64,000 nucleotides of DNA from Vulcanimicrobiota bacterium (GTDB lineage Bacteria; Vulcanimicrobiota; Vulcanimicrobiia; Vulcanimicrobiales; Vulcanimicrobiaceae), in assembly GCA_963795855.1 (NCBI GenBank), contig CAWCIZ010000003.1, forward strand, positions 384,001 to 448,000, written 5' to 3'. Positions 30,546 to 38,450 of the stretch are shown here, piece after piece. A model generated the notes under the pieces. The model was not told where the DNA came from. It worked only from the letters and a program-made list of their open reading frames with translations, and searched no databases. Within the stretch, counting starts at the first letter, position 1. Every line of letters begins with the position of its first letter. The position numbers and the translations under genes were made by a program.

Positions 30546-31574
30546 TTGCTCGGCACCGTTGCGCAACTCGCGCAGCGCGTCGGGGGACGCGCGATCGGCG
30601 ACGGCGCGCTCTCGATTGCGCGCATCGCCGCCATCGACGAAGCCGGCCCTGATGCGCTGACGTTCGCAACGACGCCGGCGTATTTGCAGGCGGCGCTGAA
30701 ATCTCGCGCAGCCGCCGTGCTCGTCGACGAGAGCATCGTGCAGACTGCGCCTCTCGATGCGTCCAAGCCGCTCATCGCCGTGCAGAGCGCACGCGTTGCG
30801 CTCATGCAACTGCTGCGCGCTTTCGATCGGCCGCGCAAACGCGGACCGTTCACGCATCCCAGCGCAGTCGTCGACGAAAGCGCGCAGATCGGGGACGGCG
30901 TGTACGTTGGCCCGGCGGCGATCGTGGGGGCGCGCAGCCGCATCGGCGACCACAGCGTCTTGGAAGCAGGCGCGTTCGTCGGCGAAGACGTCACGATCGG
31001 CAGCGGCGTTCTATTGCATCCCCACGCCGCGGTCATGGACGGCTGCGTCGTCGGAAACGATGCGATCGTACATCCGGGCGCCGTCATCGGCAGCGACGGA
31101 TTCGGATACGTATTCGTCGGCGGGCGGTTCGAACGAATTCCGCAGGTCGGCAACGTGGTGCTCGGCGACGGTGTGGAGATCGGCGCGAATACGTGCGTCG
31201 ATCGTGCGCAAACCGGAAGTACGCACATCGGCGACGGAACCAAAATAGATAATCTTTGCCAAATCGGGCACAACTGCCGCATCGGCGCGAACACCGGTAT
31301 GGCGGCGCAAACCGGGCTTGCCGGCAGCACGATCGTCGGAGATTACGTGCTAATCGGCGGGCAAGCGGGATTCAAGGGACATATCACCATCGGTTCCCGC
31401 GTGAAGATTGCGGCGGGCGCAAAAGTGTGGGGCGACATCGCGGACGAGGCATTCGTAAGCGGCACGCCCGCGCGTCCCCATCAGGAAGATTTGCGCCGAG
31501 AGGTCATGCTTCGCGGCCTGCCTAAGCTGATCGCCCGTGTCGAGGCCCTCGAAAAGAAACAGCGCGAGTCCTAG
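30546..31574 (+). CDS. lpxD: UDP-3-O-acylglucosamine N-acyltransferase
   Basis: Hexapeptide repeats, IGSDGFGY, IPQVGNV, VEIGANTCVDR, KIDNLCQIGHN. Confidence 0.95.
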   Translation: MLGTVAQLAQRVGGRAIGDGALSIARIAAIDEAGPDALTFATTPAYLQAALKSRAAAVLVDESIVQTAPLDASKPLIAVQSARVALMQLLRAFDRPRKRGPFTHPSAVVDESAQIGDGVYVGPAAIVGARSRIGDHSVLEAGAFVGEDVTIGSGVLLHPHAAVMDGCVVGNDAIVHPGAVIGSDGFGYVFVGGRFERIPQVGNVVLGDGVEIGANTCVDRAQTGSTHIGDGTKIDNLCQIGHNCRIGANTGMAAQTGLAGSTIVGDYVLIGGQAGFKGHITIGSRVKIAAGAKVWGDIADEAFVSGTPARPHQEDLRREVMLRGLPKLIARVEALEKKQRES

Positions 31575-31580
31575 GCAGGC

Positions 31581-32427
31581 GTGAGCGTGCAGTACCAAAC
31601 GACGCTTCGCGAGGCGTTTGCGTTTGAGGGTGTGGGCTTGCATACCGGCGCGCCGTGCCGCGTCGACGTTCGCCCCGCTTCGGCGGGCACCGGTTTGCAA
31701 TTCGTTTCGGGCAGTACGGTTATTCCGGCGCTCGCCGAGCACGTCGTGGAAACGGCCCGCGCAACGGTCGTCGGAAAAGACGGCGTCACGATATCGACCG
31801 TCGAGCATCTGCTTGCCGCGCTTTTCGGAATGGGTCTTGCGAACGCGACCATTCACGTCGACGGTCCGGAAATTCCGGTAGCCGACGGCAGCGCGAAAAC
31901 GTGGGTGGAACTCATCGCACGGGCCGGAATCGCCGCGCAAAGCGAAGTGCGCGATCGTTTCGTTCCCGCTTCTCCGGTCTTCGTGCGTGACGCCGATCGC
32001 GCGCTTGTGATTCTTCCCGCTTCGCAATTCCGCGTGCGTTTTCTCGCGGATTTCGCGCCGCCGATCGGCACGCAGTATTTCGACGCGGAGATGACGCCCG
32101 AAACGTTTTCCGCCGAAGTCGCCTCCGCGCGCACGTTCGGGTATTTGCACGAAGTGCAGGCGCTGCTCGATCGCGGCCTCGCGAAAGGCGGAACGCTCGA
32201 GAATGCGCTCGTGTTCGCGCCCGAAGGACCGATGCAGGAGATGCGCTGGCCGAACGAGCCGGTTCGTCATAAAGTACTCGATCTCGCTCGGCGATCTCGC
32301 GCTTCTCGGCGCCTGGCCGCAATGCGAAGTGGTCGCGATCAAGAGCGGCCACAAACTGCACTGCATCGCGACGACGGAACTGCGCCGTCAGATTGGCGGC
32401 AAACTGCCGTCGGCGAAAGTGCGATAA
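31581..32427 (+). CDS. lpxC: UDP-3-O-acyl-GlcNAc deacetylase (frameshift near 32285)
   Basis: GVGLHTG, TVEHLLAAL, EIPVADGS, ARTFG, HKVLDL; GDLALLG...KSGH tail in the shifted frame. Confidence 0.94.
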
Positions 32428-32429
32428 CG

Positions 32430-32903
32430 GTGCCGGAACTGGACATCCGGCAGATCATGGAGATCCTGCCGCACCGCTATCCGATTCTGCTCGTCGATCG
32501 CATCATCGAACTGGAGCCCGGCGTTCGCGCGGTCGGCTACAAAAACGTTACGGCGACGGAACCGATTTTTACCGGCCACTTTCCGGGAAATCCGCTGTTT
32601 CCCGGCGTCTACATGATTGAAGCGCTCGCGCAACTCGGCGGTTGCGTCGTCCTGGAACCCGGCGAGTTTTCGCGCAAGACTCCGTATCTTGCCGGCATCG
32701 ACGCCGCGAAATTCCGCCGTCCCGTCGTTCCCGGCGATAGGTTCATGATGGAAGTGCGGCTGACCAAGCACAAACGCAATATCGGTTGGGTGCACGCCGA
32801 AGGAAGCGTCGACGGTCAGTTCGTGGTCTCCGCGGAACTGATGTTCTCGATCGCCTCCGATCCGCGCATCTTCGGTTTCGACGCGACGGTGCTGCACTCT
32901 TGA
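32430..32903 (+). CDS. fabZ: 3-hydroxyacyl-ACP dehydratase
   Basis: LPHRYPILLVDR, FTGHFPGNPLFPGVYMIEALAQ, FRRPVVPGD. Confidence 0.95.
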   Translation: MPELDIRQIMEILPHRYPILLVDRIIELEPGVRAVGYKNVTATEPIFTGHFPGNPLFPGVYMIEALAQLGGCVVLEPGEFSRKTPYLAGIDAAKFRRPVVPGDRFMMEVRLTKHKRNIGWVHAEGSVDGQFVVSAELMFSIASDPRIFGFDATVLHS

Positions 32904-32955: not shown

Positions 32956-33726
32956 GTGATCCATCCGACGGCTATCGTGCATCCCAATGCGAAGATCGAT
33001 CGCGGCGTCGAAATCGGGCCGTACTGTATCGTCGGCGAAAACGTTTCGATCGGGCGCGGCACGGTTCTCCAGGCGCACGTCGTCGTGAACGGTTGGACGA
33101 GCATCGGTGAGGACTGCGAGATTTTTCCTTTCGCGACCATCGGCGCTTCGTCACAAGATAAGAAGTACAGGGGCGAGCGCGCTTACACCCGTATCGGCAG
33201 CCGCACGATCATTCGCGAATATGTAAGCGTGCAGCGCGCGACCGGCGAAGATCAAGTCACCGCGATCGGCGACGACTGCCTGCTGCTCGCCTACATGCAT
33301 GTCGCGCACAACTGTATCCTCGGAAACGGCGTGACGATGAGCAACCTCGCGCAGCTGGCGGGGCATTGCATCATCGACGACAGCGTCGTGATTGCGGGCA
33401 TGGCCGGATTGCACCAATTCGTGCGCGTTGGGCGATATGCGTTCATCGGCGGCGACAGCAAAGTAACGCGCGACGTGCCGCCGTTTTTCTTGGTCGAGGG
33501 AAATCCCGCGGCGCCGTACGGGCTCAACAGCGTGGGCTTGCGCCGCGCCAATTTCAGCGAAGAAGAGCGCGCCGAAATCAAAAAATTCTACAAACTGCTG
33601 TACGGTTCCAAGATGAAGCTCTCCGAGGCAATCGAGACGATGAAAGCGGAAGTGACGACGGAATCGGGCCGGCACATTCTGGATTTTCTCGAAGGCGAAT
33701 CGCAGCGCGGCATTTTGCTGAAATAG
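32956..33726 (+). CDS. lpxA: UDP-GlcNAc O-acyltransferase
   Basis: IHPTAIV, QDKKYRGE, HVAHNC, LAGH, HQFVRVG, GLNSVGLRR. Confidence 0.96.
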   Translation: MIHPTAIVHPNAKIDRGVEIGPYCIVGENVSIGRGTVLQAHVVVNGWTSIGEDCEIFPFATIGASSQDKKYRGERAYTRIGSRTIIREYVSVQRATGEDQVTAIGDDCLLLAYMHVAHNCILGNGVTMSNLAQLAGHCIIDDSVVIAGMAGLHQFVRVGRYAFIGGDSKVTRDVPPFFLVEGNPAAPYGLNSVGLRRANFSEEERAEIKKFYKLLYGSKMKLSEAIETMKAEVTTESGRHILDFLEGESQRGILLK

Positions 33727-33727
33727 C

Positions 33728-34840
33728 GTGCGCTATTTTCTTTCGAGCGGCGAAGCCTCGGGCGAACTGGCCGCAACGCTGCTGGCAGACGCCGTTCGCC
33801 GCATCGATCCGCAAGCGGAGTTCGAAGGTATCGGTGCTGCGCGAATGCGCGAAAGCGGCGTGCACCTGTGGCGCGATCATACCGGTTGGGCCAGCATGGG
33901 TCCGCTCTCGGCGGTTCCGCGTATTCCCAAACTGCTGCTCACGATGCTGCGCACCGCGCAGCACATTGCGTCCAGCAAGCCCGATCTGGTCATTCTCGTC
34001 GATTTCGGCGCGTTCAACGTCCGGCTTGCGGAGCGGCTGCGGGCCATCGGTTACGACGGCGCGATTCTCGACATCTTTCCGCCGGCGACGTGGCTCGATC
34101 GCGAGAAAACGGCGCGCGACGTTGCACGCATCGCCGTGCCCATGACGGCGTTCGCGCATCAACGCGACTTCTATGAGTCGCTCGGACTTCGCATCGCGTA
34201 CTTCGGGCATCCGCTGGCCGGACAGTATGCGCTGCGTCCGCCGCGTCCCACGCCTGCGGCAGATGACGGCGTCCTCGCGCTGCTCCCGGGAAGCCGTTCC
34301 GGCGAGCTGCGCTACCACGTGCCGCGCCTTTATGCTGCGTTGCGCAAGCTGCGCGAACGGCGTCCGAATGTACGAGCCGTCGTCGGCGCGGCCGACGAAC
34401 ACGCCGAACGGCAGTTGCGCGCAGCCGCTCGGCGCGAGGGAATAACCGGGCTTACGTTCGCGCGCGGAACGCGCGAAGCCATTGCGCAAGCCGATGCAGC
34501 GTGGGTGGCGTCCGGGACGGCAGTGTTGGAATGCGCGCTTTCCGGCGTACCGGCGGTGGCGCTTTACGTCATTTCGCCGCTGCTGGTGAATCACGCGCGG
34601 CGCGTCTATTCCGGGCGCTTCATCACGCTGCCGAATCTGGTGCTCGATCGCGCGGTCATTCCGGAACTTCTCCAGGATGATGCCACGCCGGAACGCCTCG
34701 CGGACGCCATGGACGCCGTGCTGCGCGATCCGCTCGAGCAGTATCGCGAATTCGAACGCTTGCGCGAGGCGCTCGGACCACCCGACGCGCTCGAACGCTG
34801 TGCCGCGTTTGCCGTGCAGCTGGCAGCCGGTGCGGCATGA
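33728..34840 (+). CDS. lpxB: Lipid-A-disaccharide synthase
   Basis: SSGEASGE, VDFGAFN, FGHPL, LLPGSRSGE, ASGTAVLE, LPNLV, PELLQ. Confidence 0.92.
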   Translation: MRYFLSSGEASGELAATLLADAVRRIDPQAEFEGIGAARMRESGVHLWRDHTGWASMGPLSAVPRIPKLLLTMLRTAQHIASSKPDLVILVDFGAFNVRLAERLRAIGYDGAILDIFPPATWLDREKTARDVARIAVPMTAFAHQRDFYESLGLRIAYFGHPLAGQYALRPPRPTPAADDGVLALLPGSRSGELRYHVPRLYAALRKLRERRPNVRAVVGAADEHAERQLRAAARREGITGLTFARGTREAIAQADAAWVASGTAVLECALSGVPAVALYVISPLLVNHARRVYSGRFITLPNLVLDRAVIPELLQDDATPERLADAMDAVLRDPLEQYREFERLREALGPPDALERCAAFAVQLAAGAA

Positions 34841-35556
34841 CGATCACGATCTATCACACCTCCGATCTGCACGATCGCCGCGGCTTTGCCGCTCCGCTTG
34901 AAACGCTCCGCTCTCGCGAGCCGGGCCTGCTGTTCGATTGCGGCGATTCGCTGCGGGGAAGTCAAACGATCTATCACCGCAGCGAACCGATTATCGGGGA
35001 GATCGACGCGGCACGGTACGACGCGCAGGCGATCGGCAACCGCGAGTTTCATTATTTGTACGGCTTTTTGCGCGCACGGGCCGCACGGATGCATCACCCG
35101 CTGGTCTGTACGAACTTAGTCGATACGAAAGGGCGCGATCTGCCCTTTGCGCGATCGCTCTTGCTCGATCACGCCGGCGTGCGCGTGCACGTTCTCGGGT
35201 TGCTGATCATGCAGTATCCCGCCGGCAGCGCGTGGGAGCGGATTTTCGGCTGGCGGTTTCTCGACCCGATTGCGGTGGTTCGCGAGTTCAGCGCCGGTAT
35301 TCCCGACGACGACGTACTGGTGGTGCTCTCTCACATCGGCCTTTCGCTGGATCGAAAACTCGCGGCGGCAGTGCCGCGTATCGACTTGCTGCTCGGCGGT
35401 CATAGCCACGATACGCTCGAGCAACCGCTATTCGTCGGTGACGTCCCCATCGTGCATGCGGGCCCATACGGAAAATTCGTTTCCCGTACCATGCTGGACC
35501 GTGAAGCGCGGCGCTGGCGCGTGCGCACCTTCGATCTGGTTCCGTTGCTGCGATGA
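34837..35556 (+). CDS. Calcineurin-like metallophosphoesterase (stand-alone UshA/5'-nucleotidase N-domain type)
   Basis: HTSDLH, DCGD, GNREF, SHIG and GGHSH motifs; no signal peptide; ATGA overlap with lpxB. Confidence 0.88.
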   Translation: MTITIYHTSDLHDRRGFAAPLETLRSREPGLLFDCGDSLRGSQTIYHRSEPIIGEIDAARYDAQAIGNREFHYLYGFLRARAARMHHPLVCTNLVDTKGRDLPFARSLLLDHAGVRVHVLGLLIMQYPAGSAWERIFGWRFLDPIAVVREFSAGIPDDDVLVVLSHIGLSLDRKLAAAVPRIDLLLGGHSHDTLEQPLFVGDVPIVHAGPYGKFVSRTMLDREARRWRVRTFDLVPLLR

Positions 35557-36701
35557 TGCGCGTGCTGTTCGTCTCCAACGGCCACGGCGAGATTGCAATC
35601 GCCGCGCGCATCGCGCTGGATCTGCAGGCACTTGCGCCCGTCGCGTGCGATCATTTGGCGCTCGTCGGCGATTTTCGCCACGCCTCCACGATGCGCGAGG
35701 TCGGCCCGCGCCGCTCAATGCCCAGCGGCGGCGTGGTGGCAATGGGGAACGTGTCCAACATCGCACGAGACCTGCGCGCCGGCCTGCTCGCTCACACGCT
35801 CGCGCAGCTGCGGTTCTTGCGCGGCGTGCGCGGAACGTACGCCTGCGCAGTGGCCGTAGGTGACGTGTTCGCGCTGATGATGGCGCGCGCGGCGCAAGCA
35901 CGATCGACGGTCTTCGTAGGAACCGCGAAGAGCGTCTACGTCGCGCCGTACGGCCCGCTCGAGGAACGTGCGATTCGCGGCGCCGACGCCGCGTTTGTGC
36001 GCGACGTTCCAACGGCGCGGCGTCTGACCGAACACGGGATCGCCGCAGTTTCGGCAAATGCGATCGTCGATCTGTATTCCGCGGATGCGCCGCCTTTCGA
36101 TGCGGCGTTCGATCCGTTTTTGGCAATCTTTCCCGGAAGCCGCGAGAGCGCATATTCCGACGCGCGCTTCATGGCCGCCGTCGCGCGCCTCGCGCTTGGG
36201 GAGGATCTCCGAGGCGGCGGCGCGGTCTCCATCGCGCCCGGCATCGATGCCGCGCGCATGTGCGGGCAATTCGAAGCAGATGGCTGGCGCGTCGTACGTC
36301 GGGATGACGAACTTGCGCCGTTTTCCCTTTGCGAAGGCGAGCGCGAAGTGCTGCGCTTTTGGACGGGAGCGCTTGGAACGTTGCTTCGGCGCGCCACGAT
36401 CGTACTCGGCCAAGCGGGAACCGCGAACGAAGCGGCGGCGGCAATGGGAATTCCCGTCGTTGCATTCGCTCGCCGCAGCGAAACGAAAACGCCTTGGTAC
36501 CGCATGCGCCAGATCGGGTTGCTGGGCGAGGCGATGATCGTGGCGAGCGCCGACGCGCACGAAGCCGCTTCCCAAGTGCGCGCTTTGCTGCGCGACGCAC
36601 CGCGGCGCGAACGCATGGGTGCGATTGGACGCGAGCGCATGGGCGAATCCGGCGGCGCCGCCGCGATTGCCGCGCGCATTGCCGCGCTGGTAGAACCTTA
36701 G
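35553..36701 (+). CDS. Lipid-A-disaccharide-synthase-related GT-B protein
   Basis: FVSNGHGE, PSGG, AVGD, GTAKS, FPGSR and GQAGTANE motifs resembling the LpxB-related family seen in cyanobacteria. Confidence 0.75.
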   Translation: MMRVLFVSNGHGEIAIAARIALDLQALAPVACDHLALVGDFRHASTMREVGPRRSMPSGGVVAMGNVSNIARDLRAGLLAHTLAQLRFLRGVRGTYACAVAVGDVFALMMARAAQARSTVFVGTAKSVYVAPYGPLEERAIRGADAAFVRDVPTARRLTEHGIAAVSANAIVDLYSADAPPFDAAFDPFLAIFPGSRESAYSDARFMAAVARLALGEDLRGGGAVSIAPGIDAARMCGQFEADGWRVVRRDDELAPFSLCEGEREVLRFWTGALGTLLRRATIVLGQAGTANEAAAAMGIPVVAFARRSETKTPWYRMRQIGLLGEAMIVASADAHEAASQVRALLRDAPRRERMGAIGRERMGESGGAAAIAARIAALVEP

Positions 36702-36702
36702 C

Positions 36703-37902
36703 ATGCGGCGCTTGCTGCCGGCTGCTTTTGCGTTCACGTATTTCGTCGTGCCGCTTTTTCCGCCGTTCATCACGCTTACCGCGGTAACCATTCCGGGCGT
36801 TTCTCTCGTGCCGCGATCGTTCGCGGTCGCGTTGCTTGCGCTCATGGCGTGCGTTGCGGTGTACGCGGGTGCGCTGCTCTTGCGCCGTCCGGTCGAACGG
36901 CCGCGGACGCTGATTCCGCTGCTTCTGTGGCTCGGCGCGGCGCTCGTATCCGCGTTGCTCGGTTTCGATCCGGCGGGCGGCATGCTGTTCATCGGCATCT
37001 TCGGTTTGGGCGTGGTCTGGCATTTGGCGCTCTTACGGTACTACACGTATCCGGGCGTGAGCCGTGCGATTTTTTTCAGCTATCTCATCTCCGGCGCAGC
37101 CGCTTCGTTCGCCGCGGTCGTAATGGTCATCGCACGCGTTCCGGCGGACCAGTACACGATCGGGCATGGCCGCGCCATCGGCACGTTCATCTTGCCGGGT
37201 GAGTTGGCCGGCTATCTCATCGTCTTTCTGCCGATCGCGTTCGCCGTGGGGCGCGTCGCCCGCAGCCGCGCGCTGCGCACGCTGGCATGGATTGCGCTCG
37301 CACTCGGCGCTGCGGCGTTCATCCTTACGTTTTCGCGCGCCGGCTGGATGGGGCTTGCCGCAGCCATTGCGTTTTTCGCTTTTGCGCGCGGTACCGTGCG
37401 GCGCCGGTACGCTGCGCTTATCGTGCTGTGCGGGTTGGCCGCGGTGCTCGTCGTGTTCAACGTGCATCACGATCCGGCGGAAAATTACACGCGCCTATCG
37501 ATTTGGCAGGCGGGCGTCGAAATCGTGCGGCGATTTCCGCTCACCGGCGTGGGACCGTTCGATTTCGCGCGCATCTATCCGCTCGTGCGTCTTCCGGACG
37601 GGGATCTCACTGCGTTTCACGCGCATAGTTTTTTGCTCACGATCTTCGCGGAAATGGGCATCGCGGGCGTAGCCGCCGTACTCGCGGCATGGTGGCGATT
37701 CGGCGTCGCGCTGCGCGATCGCGTGCGCTGCGCGAACGCTCGGAACGCGACCATTGCGCTCGCCGTCGCAGCGGGACTGGCAGGGACGTGGGTGCAAGGG
37801 CTCATCGATACCGTGAGCGTGGTCATATTCGGGCTGTGGCTGCCTTCGATGGCGCTGGCGCTCGCCGCCGCTGAATACGGATTGGGAGAGGAGGCGTTAT
37901 GA
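36703..37902 (+). CDS. O-antigen ligase (WaaL/Wzy_C) family membrane protein
   Basis: Multi-TM; RAIGTF, LTFSRAGW, RLSIWQAG, PLTGVG, HAHS..L.IFAEMG. Confidence 0.85.
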   Translation: MRRLLPAAFAFTYFVVPLFPPFITLTAVTIPGVSLVPRSFAVALLALMACVAVYAGALLLRRPVERPRTLIPLLLWLGAALVSALLGFDPAGGMLFIGIFGLGVVWHLALLRYYTYPGVSRAIFFSYLISGAAASFAAVVMVIARVPADQYTIGHGRAIGTFILPGELAGYLIVFLPIAFAVGRVARSRALRTLAWIALALGAAAFILTFSRAGWMGLAAAIAFFAFARGTVRRRYAALIVLCGLAAVLVVFNVHHDPAENYTRLSIWQAGVEIVRRFPLTGVGPFDFARIYPLVRLPDGDLTAFHAHSFLLTIFAEMGIAGVAAVLAAWWRFGVALRDRVRCANARNATIALAVAAGLAGTWVQGLIDTVSVVIFGLWLPSMALALAAAEYGLGEEAL

Positions 37903-38450
37903 AACCGCTGCTCGCACTCGGGCTCGCAGCGCTGCTGCTGGCCGGCTGCAATCCGCAGCCGGAACACCGGATCGATGCAAGCGCGGGTCCGTCCTCGACG
38001 CCGACCGGGCTTCCTCCGCTCAGAATCGTGGGGCGCGGTACCGCGCGGCAGCCCGTGCGCGTCATCGGTCAACAGTCGGACGGCCGCAAAACGTATGAGT
38101 TGATCGCGCGATCGTACGAGAGCCGCTCGGCGCAGAACGTCACCGAAGCAACGTTTCAGCAAACGAAGGTAACGTTCTACGACAAAGATGGTACGAAGCT
38201 GCAGGCGCAGGCGCCGCAAGCCCGCATCGACGACCGGCGTAAGCAGGTAATCCTGTCCGGTGGAGTGCATGCCACCACGAGCACGGGAGTGACGCTCGTT
38301 TGCGATCGCCTCGTGTACGACGACGCGTCGGGACTGCTGCACGGGACGGGCAACGTCCGCATCACCGGAACGCAAGGCGGCGAGCAGCAGGTCTTGACGG
38401 GCAACACGTTTACGTCCGACGTGAAATTGACCCGGATGACGATGAAGTAA
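37899..38450 (+). CDS. lptC: LPS export periplasmic protein LptC-like (lipoprotein)
   Basis: LAGC lipobox, beta-jellyroll pattern (LSGGVHA, CDRLVYD, GNVRI); directly upstream of lptB. Confidence 0.75.
   Translation: MKPLLALGLAALLLAGCNPQPEHRIDASAGPSSTPTGLPPLRIVGRGTARQPVRVIGQQSDGRKTYELIARSYESRSAQNVTEATFQQTKVTFYDKDGTKLQAQAPQARIDDRRKQVILSGGVHATTSTGVTLVCDRLVYDDASGLLHGTGNVRITGTQGGEQQVLTGNTFTSDVKLTRMTMK

Follow-up and report, generated by a model that had tools for sequence, protein, structure and literature searches.

The metallophosphoesterase gene adjoining lpxB in a lipid A gene cluster of a Vulcanimicrobiota bacterium, from a phylum of soil bacteria, encodes a member of a real, conserved and uncharacterised enzyme family, which is a good candidate for a fourth, separately evolved solution to the lipid X-forming step, indispensable for making lipid A (endotoxin). 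We consider it probable that the protein is a UDP-2,3-diacylglucosamine hydrolase additional to LpxH, LpxI and LpxG. The broader proposal, in which a 5'-nucleotidase scaffold with a convergent His-to-Arg replacement provides a fourth independent UDP-diacylglucosamine hydrolase that LpxI can replace, and vice versa, in homologous gene clusters, and that supplies lipid X throughout Vulcanimicrobiota and in most Armatimonadota, appears to us somewhat probable. A convergently recruited lipid X-forming enzyme had already been suggested in the first-pass annotation of this DNA. The suggestion is strengthened by the lack of a known hydrolase, the invariant Arg, the linkage to lipopolysaccharide (LPS) genes and the mutual exclusion with LpxI, but is weakened by Armatimonadota devoid of the family and by a neighbouring gene that is more tightly linked than lpxB.

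The window, i.e., the whole stretch of 64,000 nucleotides analysed here, carries the following genes in this order on the forward strand: lpxD (30546–31574; TIGR01853 over the cut-off), lpxC and fabZ (31581–32903; Pfam and NCBIfam scans), lpxA (32956–33726; TIGR01852 over the cut-off), lpxB for lipid A disaccharide synthase, which consumes lipid X (33728–34840; PF02684, E 9e-60; TIGR00215, 169.6 bits with a cut-off of 190), the metallophosphoesterase gene (34837–35556), a gene for a TIGR03492-like, LpxB-related glycosyltransferase (35553–36701; TIGR03492, E 2.4e-56), a gene for an O-antigen ligase-like membrane protein (36703–37902; PF04932, E 2.8e-19) and lptC (37899–38450; PF06835 and TIGR04409). 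An lptB-like ATPase gene and then an lptF/G-like gene follow, both labelled by reading their translations only. lpxC and fabZ read as one ORF, while their homologues are separated by a gap; the single ORF is probably a false fusion generated by a frameshift error near 32290. The C-terminus of LpxC appears to sit in the frame 32203–32427, and the ompH and lptF/G ORFs seem to be hit by similar breaks. The Pfam and NCBIfam scans confirmed the earlier description of the cluster as containing lpxD, lpxC, lpxA and lpxB and none of lpxH, lpxI and lpxG.

Profile scans, a 41-sequence alignment and a structure model identify the product of the candidate gene as a stand-alone metallophosphoesterase of the 5'-nucleotidase N-domain type with a GNRE motif. 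ATGA overlaps join its ORF both to the stop codon of lpxB, in agreement with the coupling to lpxB noticed in the first-pass annotation, and to the start of the next gene. Pfam Metallophos matched the protein (E 1.3e-5), and its NCBIfam matches, which stayed well under the cut-offs, were to N-domains of SoxB, UshA and CpdB; none of the LpxH, LpxI and LpxG models matched it in the NCBIfam/Pfam scan. The metal-motif residues D10, H12, D37, N68, H166, H189 and H191, which form a seven-ligand dimetal site, were unchanged in all 41 orthologues aligned. The ORF ends at residue 239 with no C-terminal substrate-binding domain, and the 40 aligned orthologues all terminate alike, at about 235–270 residues. 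Among 306 short family members, the first metal motif starts by residue ~14–15 in 95%, and the peak 19-residue hydropathy is 1.45; both values fit a protein that would lack a signal peptide. The ORF, the scans and the alignment agree with the earlier description of a signal-less protein of 239 aa with UshA/5'-nucleotidase N-domain motifs, no C-terminal domain and GNRE.

Aligned to the GNHEF motif of CD73, the codon of Arg69 (CGC, 35041–35043, forward strand) falls on the catalytic His of UshA and CD73 and on Arg80/81 of LpxH, and the motif around it reads GNREFH. The first-pass annotation had cautioned that CGC and CAC differ by a single base in an error-prone sequence, and had proposed conservation of the Arg in relatives as a check. 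Arg was present at this position in 41/41 phylum-wide orthologues aligned, in the 20 closest loci without exception (the own locus among them; codons CGC, CGT and CGG), in 120/120 of the best 120 among 1,619 database matches, and in all 30 best Armatimonadota loci. As the Arg is invariant and its codons vary, a sequencing error is ruled out and the caveat no longer applies. When the best 150 matches of a profile search were split by length, 67 of the 68 short proteins had GNRE and 80 of the 82 long ones had GNH[ED]. A FastTree tree of 112 rows placed 92 GNRE proteins apart from 20 His-type domains with a support of 0.57, which became 0.999 once two His-type rows joined the GNRE group; the group itself comprised two subclades following the two phyla, Vulcanimicrobiota and Armatimonadota. 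Judged from these subclades, which have weak support, the family was probably recruited once from a UshA-type N-domain, before the two phyla split. Profile comparisons revealed only weak similarity to an LpxH2-like and to a YkuE-like protein.

The whole-genome search for lpxH, lpxI and lpxG proposed earlier found no bona fide gene in the source genome (86% complete), and the same held across 151 genomes of the phylum. For LpxH, TIGR01854 had no match in the source genome even at E 1; for LpxI, only one 27-residue fragment appeared (E 0.17); and for LpxG, no match was obtained. tblastn searches of the source genome with LpxI, YkuE-like and LpxH2-like proteins of other genomes returned nothing below E 0.7. 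We also considered whether one of the seven other metallophosphoesterases of the genome might be an overlooked LpxH, LpxI or LpxG, but these were ApaH/YfcE-like, CpdA-like, TIGR00282, YfcE, PdeM-like or unmatched, and none matched an Lpx model. Among the 151 genomes of Vulcanimicrobiota (Eremiobacterota), a tally that takes in the unpublished genome G036, the LpxI model matched none, the LpxH model none, and LpxG was over the cut-off in none. Weak LpxG-like (YkuE-type) matches were obtained in 3 of the 81 other genomes of the source class (E about 1e-6) and in 58 of the 69 genomes of other Vulcanimicrobiota classes; such matches are unspecific because controls such as Bacillus subtilis give them too. 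The LpxI model is sensitive in Terrabacteria, as it detected all of three Negativicutes (E about 1e-50). The short GNRE form was not found in these three LpxI-bearing genomes, in which the family matches were long proteins only.

The phosphoesterase is present in 80 of the 81 other genomes of the source class. Five genomes had low first scores, and the gene was recovered in four of them; no GNRE orthologue was found in G066 (94% complete). No relative was found on viral contigs, and a metagenome scan with the divergent member P0177 gave no match. In the cultured member of the phylum, LPS covers the outer membrane and 3-hydroxy fatty acids are present (PMC9758169). Elsewhere in the source genome, another LpxB-like gene neighbours GT9 genes at about C3:347000-347800.

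Armatimonadota carry orthologues of the phosphoesterase in a different LPS operon (kdsD–kdsC). Among the 30 best-scoring loci, a sample biased toward the lineages of the query, 20 have kdsC immediately upstream and 19 have a GT-C gene downstream; among the first 14 loci, a kds and/or GT-C neighbour occurs in eight and neither in six. The conserved operon (L094 and L185–L213) consists of kdsD, kdsC, the phosphoesterase gene and one or two genes for PMT_2 (GT-C) membrane glycosyltransferases, with tsaE added in some loci. No TIGR03492 orthologue was present in five of five family-positive Armatimonadota, and tblastn detected neither kdsB, kdsC or kdsD nor the GT-C pair in the source genome. A role in the Kdo pathway was rejected because of this lack of kdsB/C/D and because KdsA gave only 30% matches of the DAHP-synthase type. 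Matches to the LpxK, KdtA and LpxL of Armatimonadota were also missing from the 86% complete source genome in tblastn, and its LPS is suggested to be cyanobacteria-like and Kdo-free. What the two phyla have in common is a lipid A backbone without a known hydrolase. LpxB was detected in 117 of 121 Armatimonadota genomes and LpxI in none of the 121, and weak LpxH-like (LpxH2-like) matches occurred in eight. These LpxH2-like proteins carry GNHD (L215, L217, L167 and five more), and all eight genomes also match the GNRE family. A match to the family at E 1e-20 was found in 102 of the 121 genomes, and in 92 the best match was below 1e-50 in a frame of fewer than 400 codons.

The remaining 19 of the 121 genomes (G280, G257, G269, G232, G303 and 14 more) lacked a match to the family, and all of them possess lpxB, with no LpxI and no match to the LpxH model; five near-complete ones yielded no family match even at E 0.01. 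Many of these genomes have lpxK and kdtA near lpxB. Fourteen of the 15 that were placed on an LpxB tree fell into two clades. As these clades retain lpxB, the GNRE family is not the sole solution, and another route to lipid X is implied in them. YkuE-like proteins occurred in four of the five near-complete family-negative genomes and in five of five family-positive ones. Inspection of 55 selected ORFs around lpxB in eight family-negative genomes revealed no candidate hydrolase; an unrelated Metallophos ORF of 397 aa lies 4 kb from lpxB in G257. Cyanobacteria and Dictyoglomi are likewise reported with only lpxA, lpxC, lpxD and lpxB (PMC3087551). Since routes to lipid X beyond the known enzymes exist, the gap alone is no proof that the phosphoesterase fills it.

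The linkage check proposed in the first-pass annotation came out in favour, as linkage to LPS genes is kept in both phyla, but the tightest partner of the phosphoesterase is the TIGR03492 glycosyltransferase gene (directly downstream in 39/40 loci chosen across families), not lpxB (in the same locus in 35/40, with three loci ending at contig ends and two truly separated). lpxB adjoins the phosphoesterase gene in all 20 closest loci. The phosphoesterase and TIGR03492 genes stay together where the pair is inverted or parted from lpxB, and three natural fusions of the two proteins are known from our searches (P0141, P0404 and P0405; 640–653 aa; 39–56% mutual identity), in which the glycosyltransferase takes the place of the UshA-type C-domain. 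A complex prediction for the two proteins scored 0.00, which counts neither for nor against their interaction. One short match in G308 adjoins a TIGR03492 gene with the gene order typical of Vulcanimicrobiota, so that we did not take it to represent a further phylum. In loci of other Vulcanimicrobiota classes (L030, L034, L037, L041 and L046), the lpx cluster holds a Gfo/Idh/MocA oxidoreductase gene, sometimes together with a DegT aminotransferase gene, which we take to be a GnnA/GnnB-like pair, as well as genes for a second LpxB-like glycosyltransferase and a PEMT-like methyltransferase.

Metagenome loci were also compared, with the TIGR03492 gene as the sole criterion of choice. Of 444 such loci, the 80 best comprised 50 with a GNRE gene, five with LpxI, none with both and 25 with neither; at 90% identity, the 61 loci left divided into 37, three and 21 with GNRE, LpxI and neither, respectively. 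LpxI was Pfam-confirmed and adjoins lpxB in all five cases. Most of the 25 loci with neither gene are incomplete, and two of them hold a partial phosphoesterase. As the five LpxI loci share one clade of the TIGR03492 tree, the exclusion amounts to a single contrast. Among ten named proteins, those nearest to the TIGR03492 proteins of the LpxI loci bear Bacillota names (41–46%).

The predicted structure of the phosphoesterase (pLDDT 97.7) resembled the N-domains of 5'-nucleotidases (Z 27.8, rmsd 2.4, 230 residues aligned; Z range 26–28) far more than LpxH (Z 10.5, rmsd 3.3, 160 residues aligned). The fold is thus UshA-like rather than LpxH-like, so that the Arg would be convergent with that of LpxH. 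Like the N-domains of UshA, CD73, NadN and CpdB, the protein shows their fold over its whole length together with the motifs HTxDxH, DxGD, GNxE, SHxG and GGHSH; it differs from them in apparently having no signal peptide, in lacking a C-terminal substrate domain, in having Arg for the catalytic His, and in that the D of GNHEFD is H, N or S in the GNRE family. Once deprived of their own C-domain, the N-domains of UshA and CpdB no longer act as nucleotidases but keep diester and some anhydride activity (PMC8071527, PMC7922932), and CpdB H117A is inactive on 3'-AMP (PMC7922932). By analogy with these losses, the phosphoesterase is unlikely to be a nucleotidase.

With LpxH (TIGR01854, PRK05340; PDB 5B49), the phosphoesterase shares a calcineurin-like dimetal site, a length of about 240 aa, the absence of an anchor, the reaction proposed here, and Arg in place of His in the GN-x-D/E motif, although it has GNRE (E, not D) where LpxH has GNRD. 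This Arg of LpxH binds the phosphate of lipid X and is reported as unique to LpxH (PMC5016852, PMC3087551). In contrast to LpxH, the phosphoesterase matches neither TIGR01854 nor PRK05340 and lacks the four-helix insertion, a lid of about 55 residues, that follows the fourth-motif His of LpxH (PMC5016852): in the model, H166 and H189 are only 23 residues apart, with a single helix in this stretch, and the short aromatic insert of the protein precedes the fourth-motif His. LpxG (NF033458; Chlamydia Ct461), a metallophosphoesterase recruited independently, sets a precedent for non-orthologous replacement; unlike the phosphoesterase, which has no NF033458 match, it carries an N-terminal transmembrane helix and GNHD (PMC4807358). 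As LpxG functions with GNHD, the Arg is neither required nor diagnostic. LpxI (PF06230, PF17930) yields the product proposed for the phosphoesterase and sits in homologous lpxA–lpxB–TIGR03492 clusters without the phosphoesterase, but belongs to an unrelated sequence family, with neither Pfam model matching our protein, and attacks the beta-phosphate (PMC4807358). The phosphoesterase falls outside the LpxH, LpxG and LpxI families, and it is not a complete UshA either. The accessible text of PMC13018214 and PMC5007114 names just the three known enzymes, or LpxI in diderm Firmicutes, and no description of the GNRE family was found in our search of a largely open-access literature.

The aromatic loop and short helix at residues 122–141 (35200–35259, forward strand; QY...W...GWRF), recognised from helix 132–137 of the model, conservation and composition, may contact lipid or membrane. 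The segment 124–143 is richer in bulky residues (0.43 and 0.40, against 0.27 in 20 His-type homologues), and helix 72–82 is basic (+2.8 and +1.9, against -0.5 in the same 20). The first-pass annotation had singled out SAWERIFGWRF as an amphipathic segment that could contact lipid. This stretch is enriched in bulky and aromatic residues relative to the His-type homologues, but the hydrophobic moment of the segment did not differ between the family and those homologues. From residue composition, a lipid-facing surface is plausible.

Most likely, the phosphoesterase works like LpxH on a UshA scaffold. It would act in the cytoplasm, probably in association with the membrane, as a dimetal pyrophosphatase that splits UDP-2,3-diacylglucosamine, or the diamino analogue of this compound, into lipid X and UMP, and the lipid X would feed LpxB. 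The two metals would bind the alpha-phosphate and activate water, Arg69 would hold the beta-phosphate as Arg80 does in LpxH, and the aromatic loop 122–141 and the basic helix 72–82 may replace the lid of LpxH and engage acyl chains or the membrane.

The main rival is a role in later glycosylation, which we judge unlikely. The enzyme would strip the lipid A disaccharide, or a lipid carrier, of a phosphate or nucleotidyl group, thereby allowing the TIGR03492 protein (Vulcanimicrobiota) or the GT-C pair (Armatimonadota) to add a sugar. The close pairing with TIGR03492, including its joint movement and the three fusions, agrees with such a role, as does the glycosyltransferase gene that follows in both phyla, with GT-C genes taking this position in 19/30 Armatimonadota loci. 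The source genome also lacks matches to LpxK and KdtA, so that the later steps of its lipid A synthesis are non-standard. Nevertheless, TIGR03492 does without the phosphoesterase in all five LpxI clusters and also occurs in Synechococcus and Deinococcus, and the partner enzymes of the phosphoesterase belong to unrelated classes in the two phyla. Moreover, loss of the catalytic His and the C-domain abolishes the monoesterase activity of CpdB (PMC7922932), and the lipid X gap would remain under this explanation.

Less likely still, the protein may be a soluble pyrophosphatase of nucleotide sugars or CDP-alcohols that trims or recycles LPS precursors (UDP-sugars, UDP-3-O-acyl-glucosamine or CMP-Kdo by-products), with lipid X coming from another enzyme. 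Its UshA-type ancestry, apparent from the Z scores above, and the absence of an LpxH-type helical lid would suit this activity; UshA cleaves UDP-glucose and CDP-choline (PMC8071527), and lineages with lpxB and no known hydrolase do exist. On the other hand, removal of its own C-domain lowers the efficiency of UshA on UDP-glucose from about 1e7 to 20 per M per s (Table 1 of PMC8071527), the exclusion with LpxI is unexpected for a housekeeping enzyme, and the surround of the active site has gained hydrophobic and basic residues. A substrate unrelated to LPS, e.g., a cyclic or linear phosphodiester, with the linkage reflecting old conserved gene order, seems very improbable to us: isolated N-domains do hydrolyse 2',3'-cyclic nucleotides (PMC7922932), and six of the first 14 Armatimonadota loci have no kds or GT-C neighbour, but the gene sits in a different LPS operon in each of the two phyla, and the three LpxI-bearing diderms searched had no short GNRE form.

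Lipid A synthesis is known to use unrelated enzymes at one step alone, the fourth (LpxH, LpxI and LpxG), and in several deep diderm lineages all three are missing. The family-negative clades of Armatimonadota mark where a further enzyme should be sought, and would point to a fifth route. If the phosphoesterase is genuinely a UDP-2,3-diacylglucosamine hydrolase, a fourth family would close the lipid X gap for two whole phyla, active sites on different scaffolds would have converged on arginine, and arguments on the ancestral outer membrane would become sharper.
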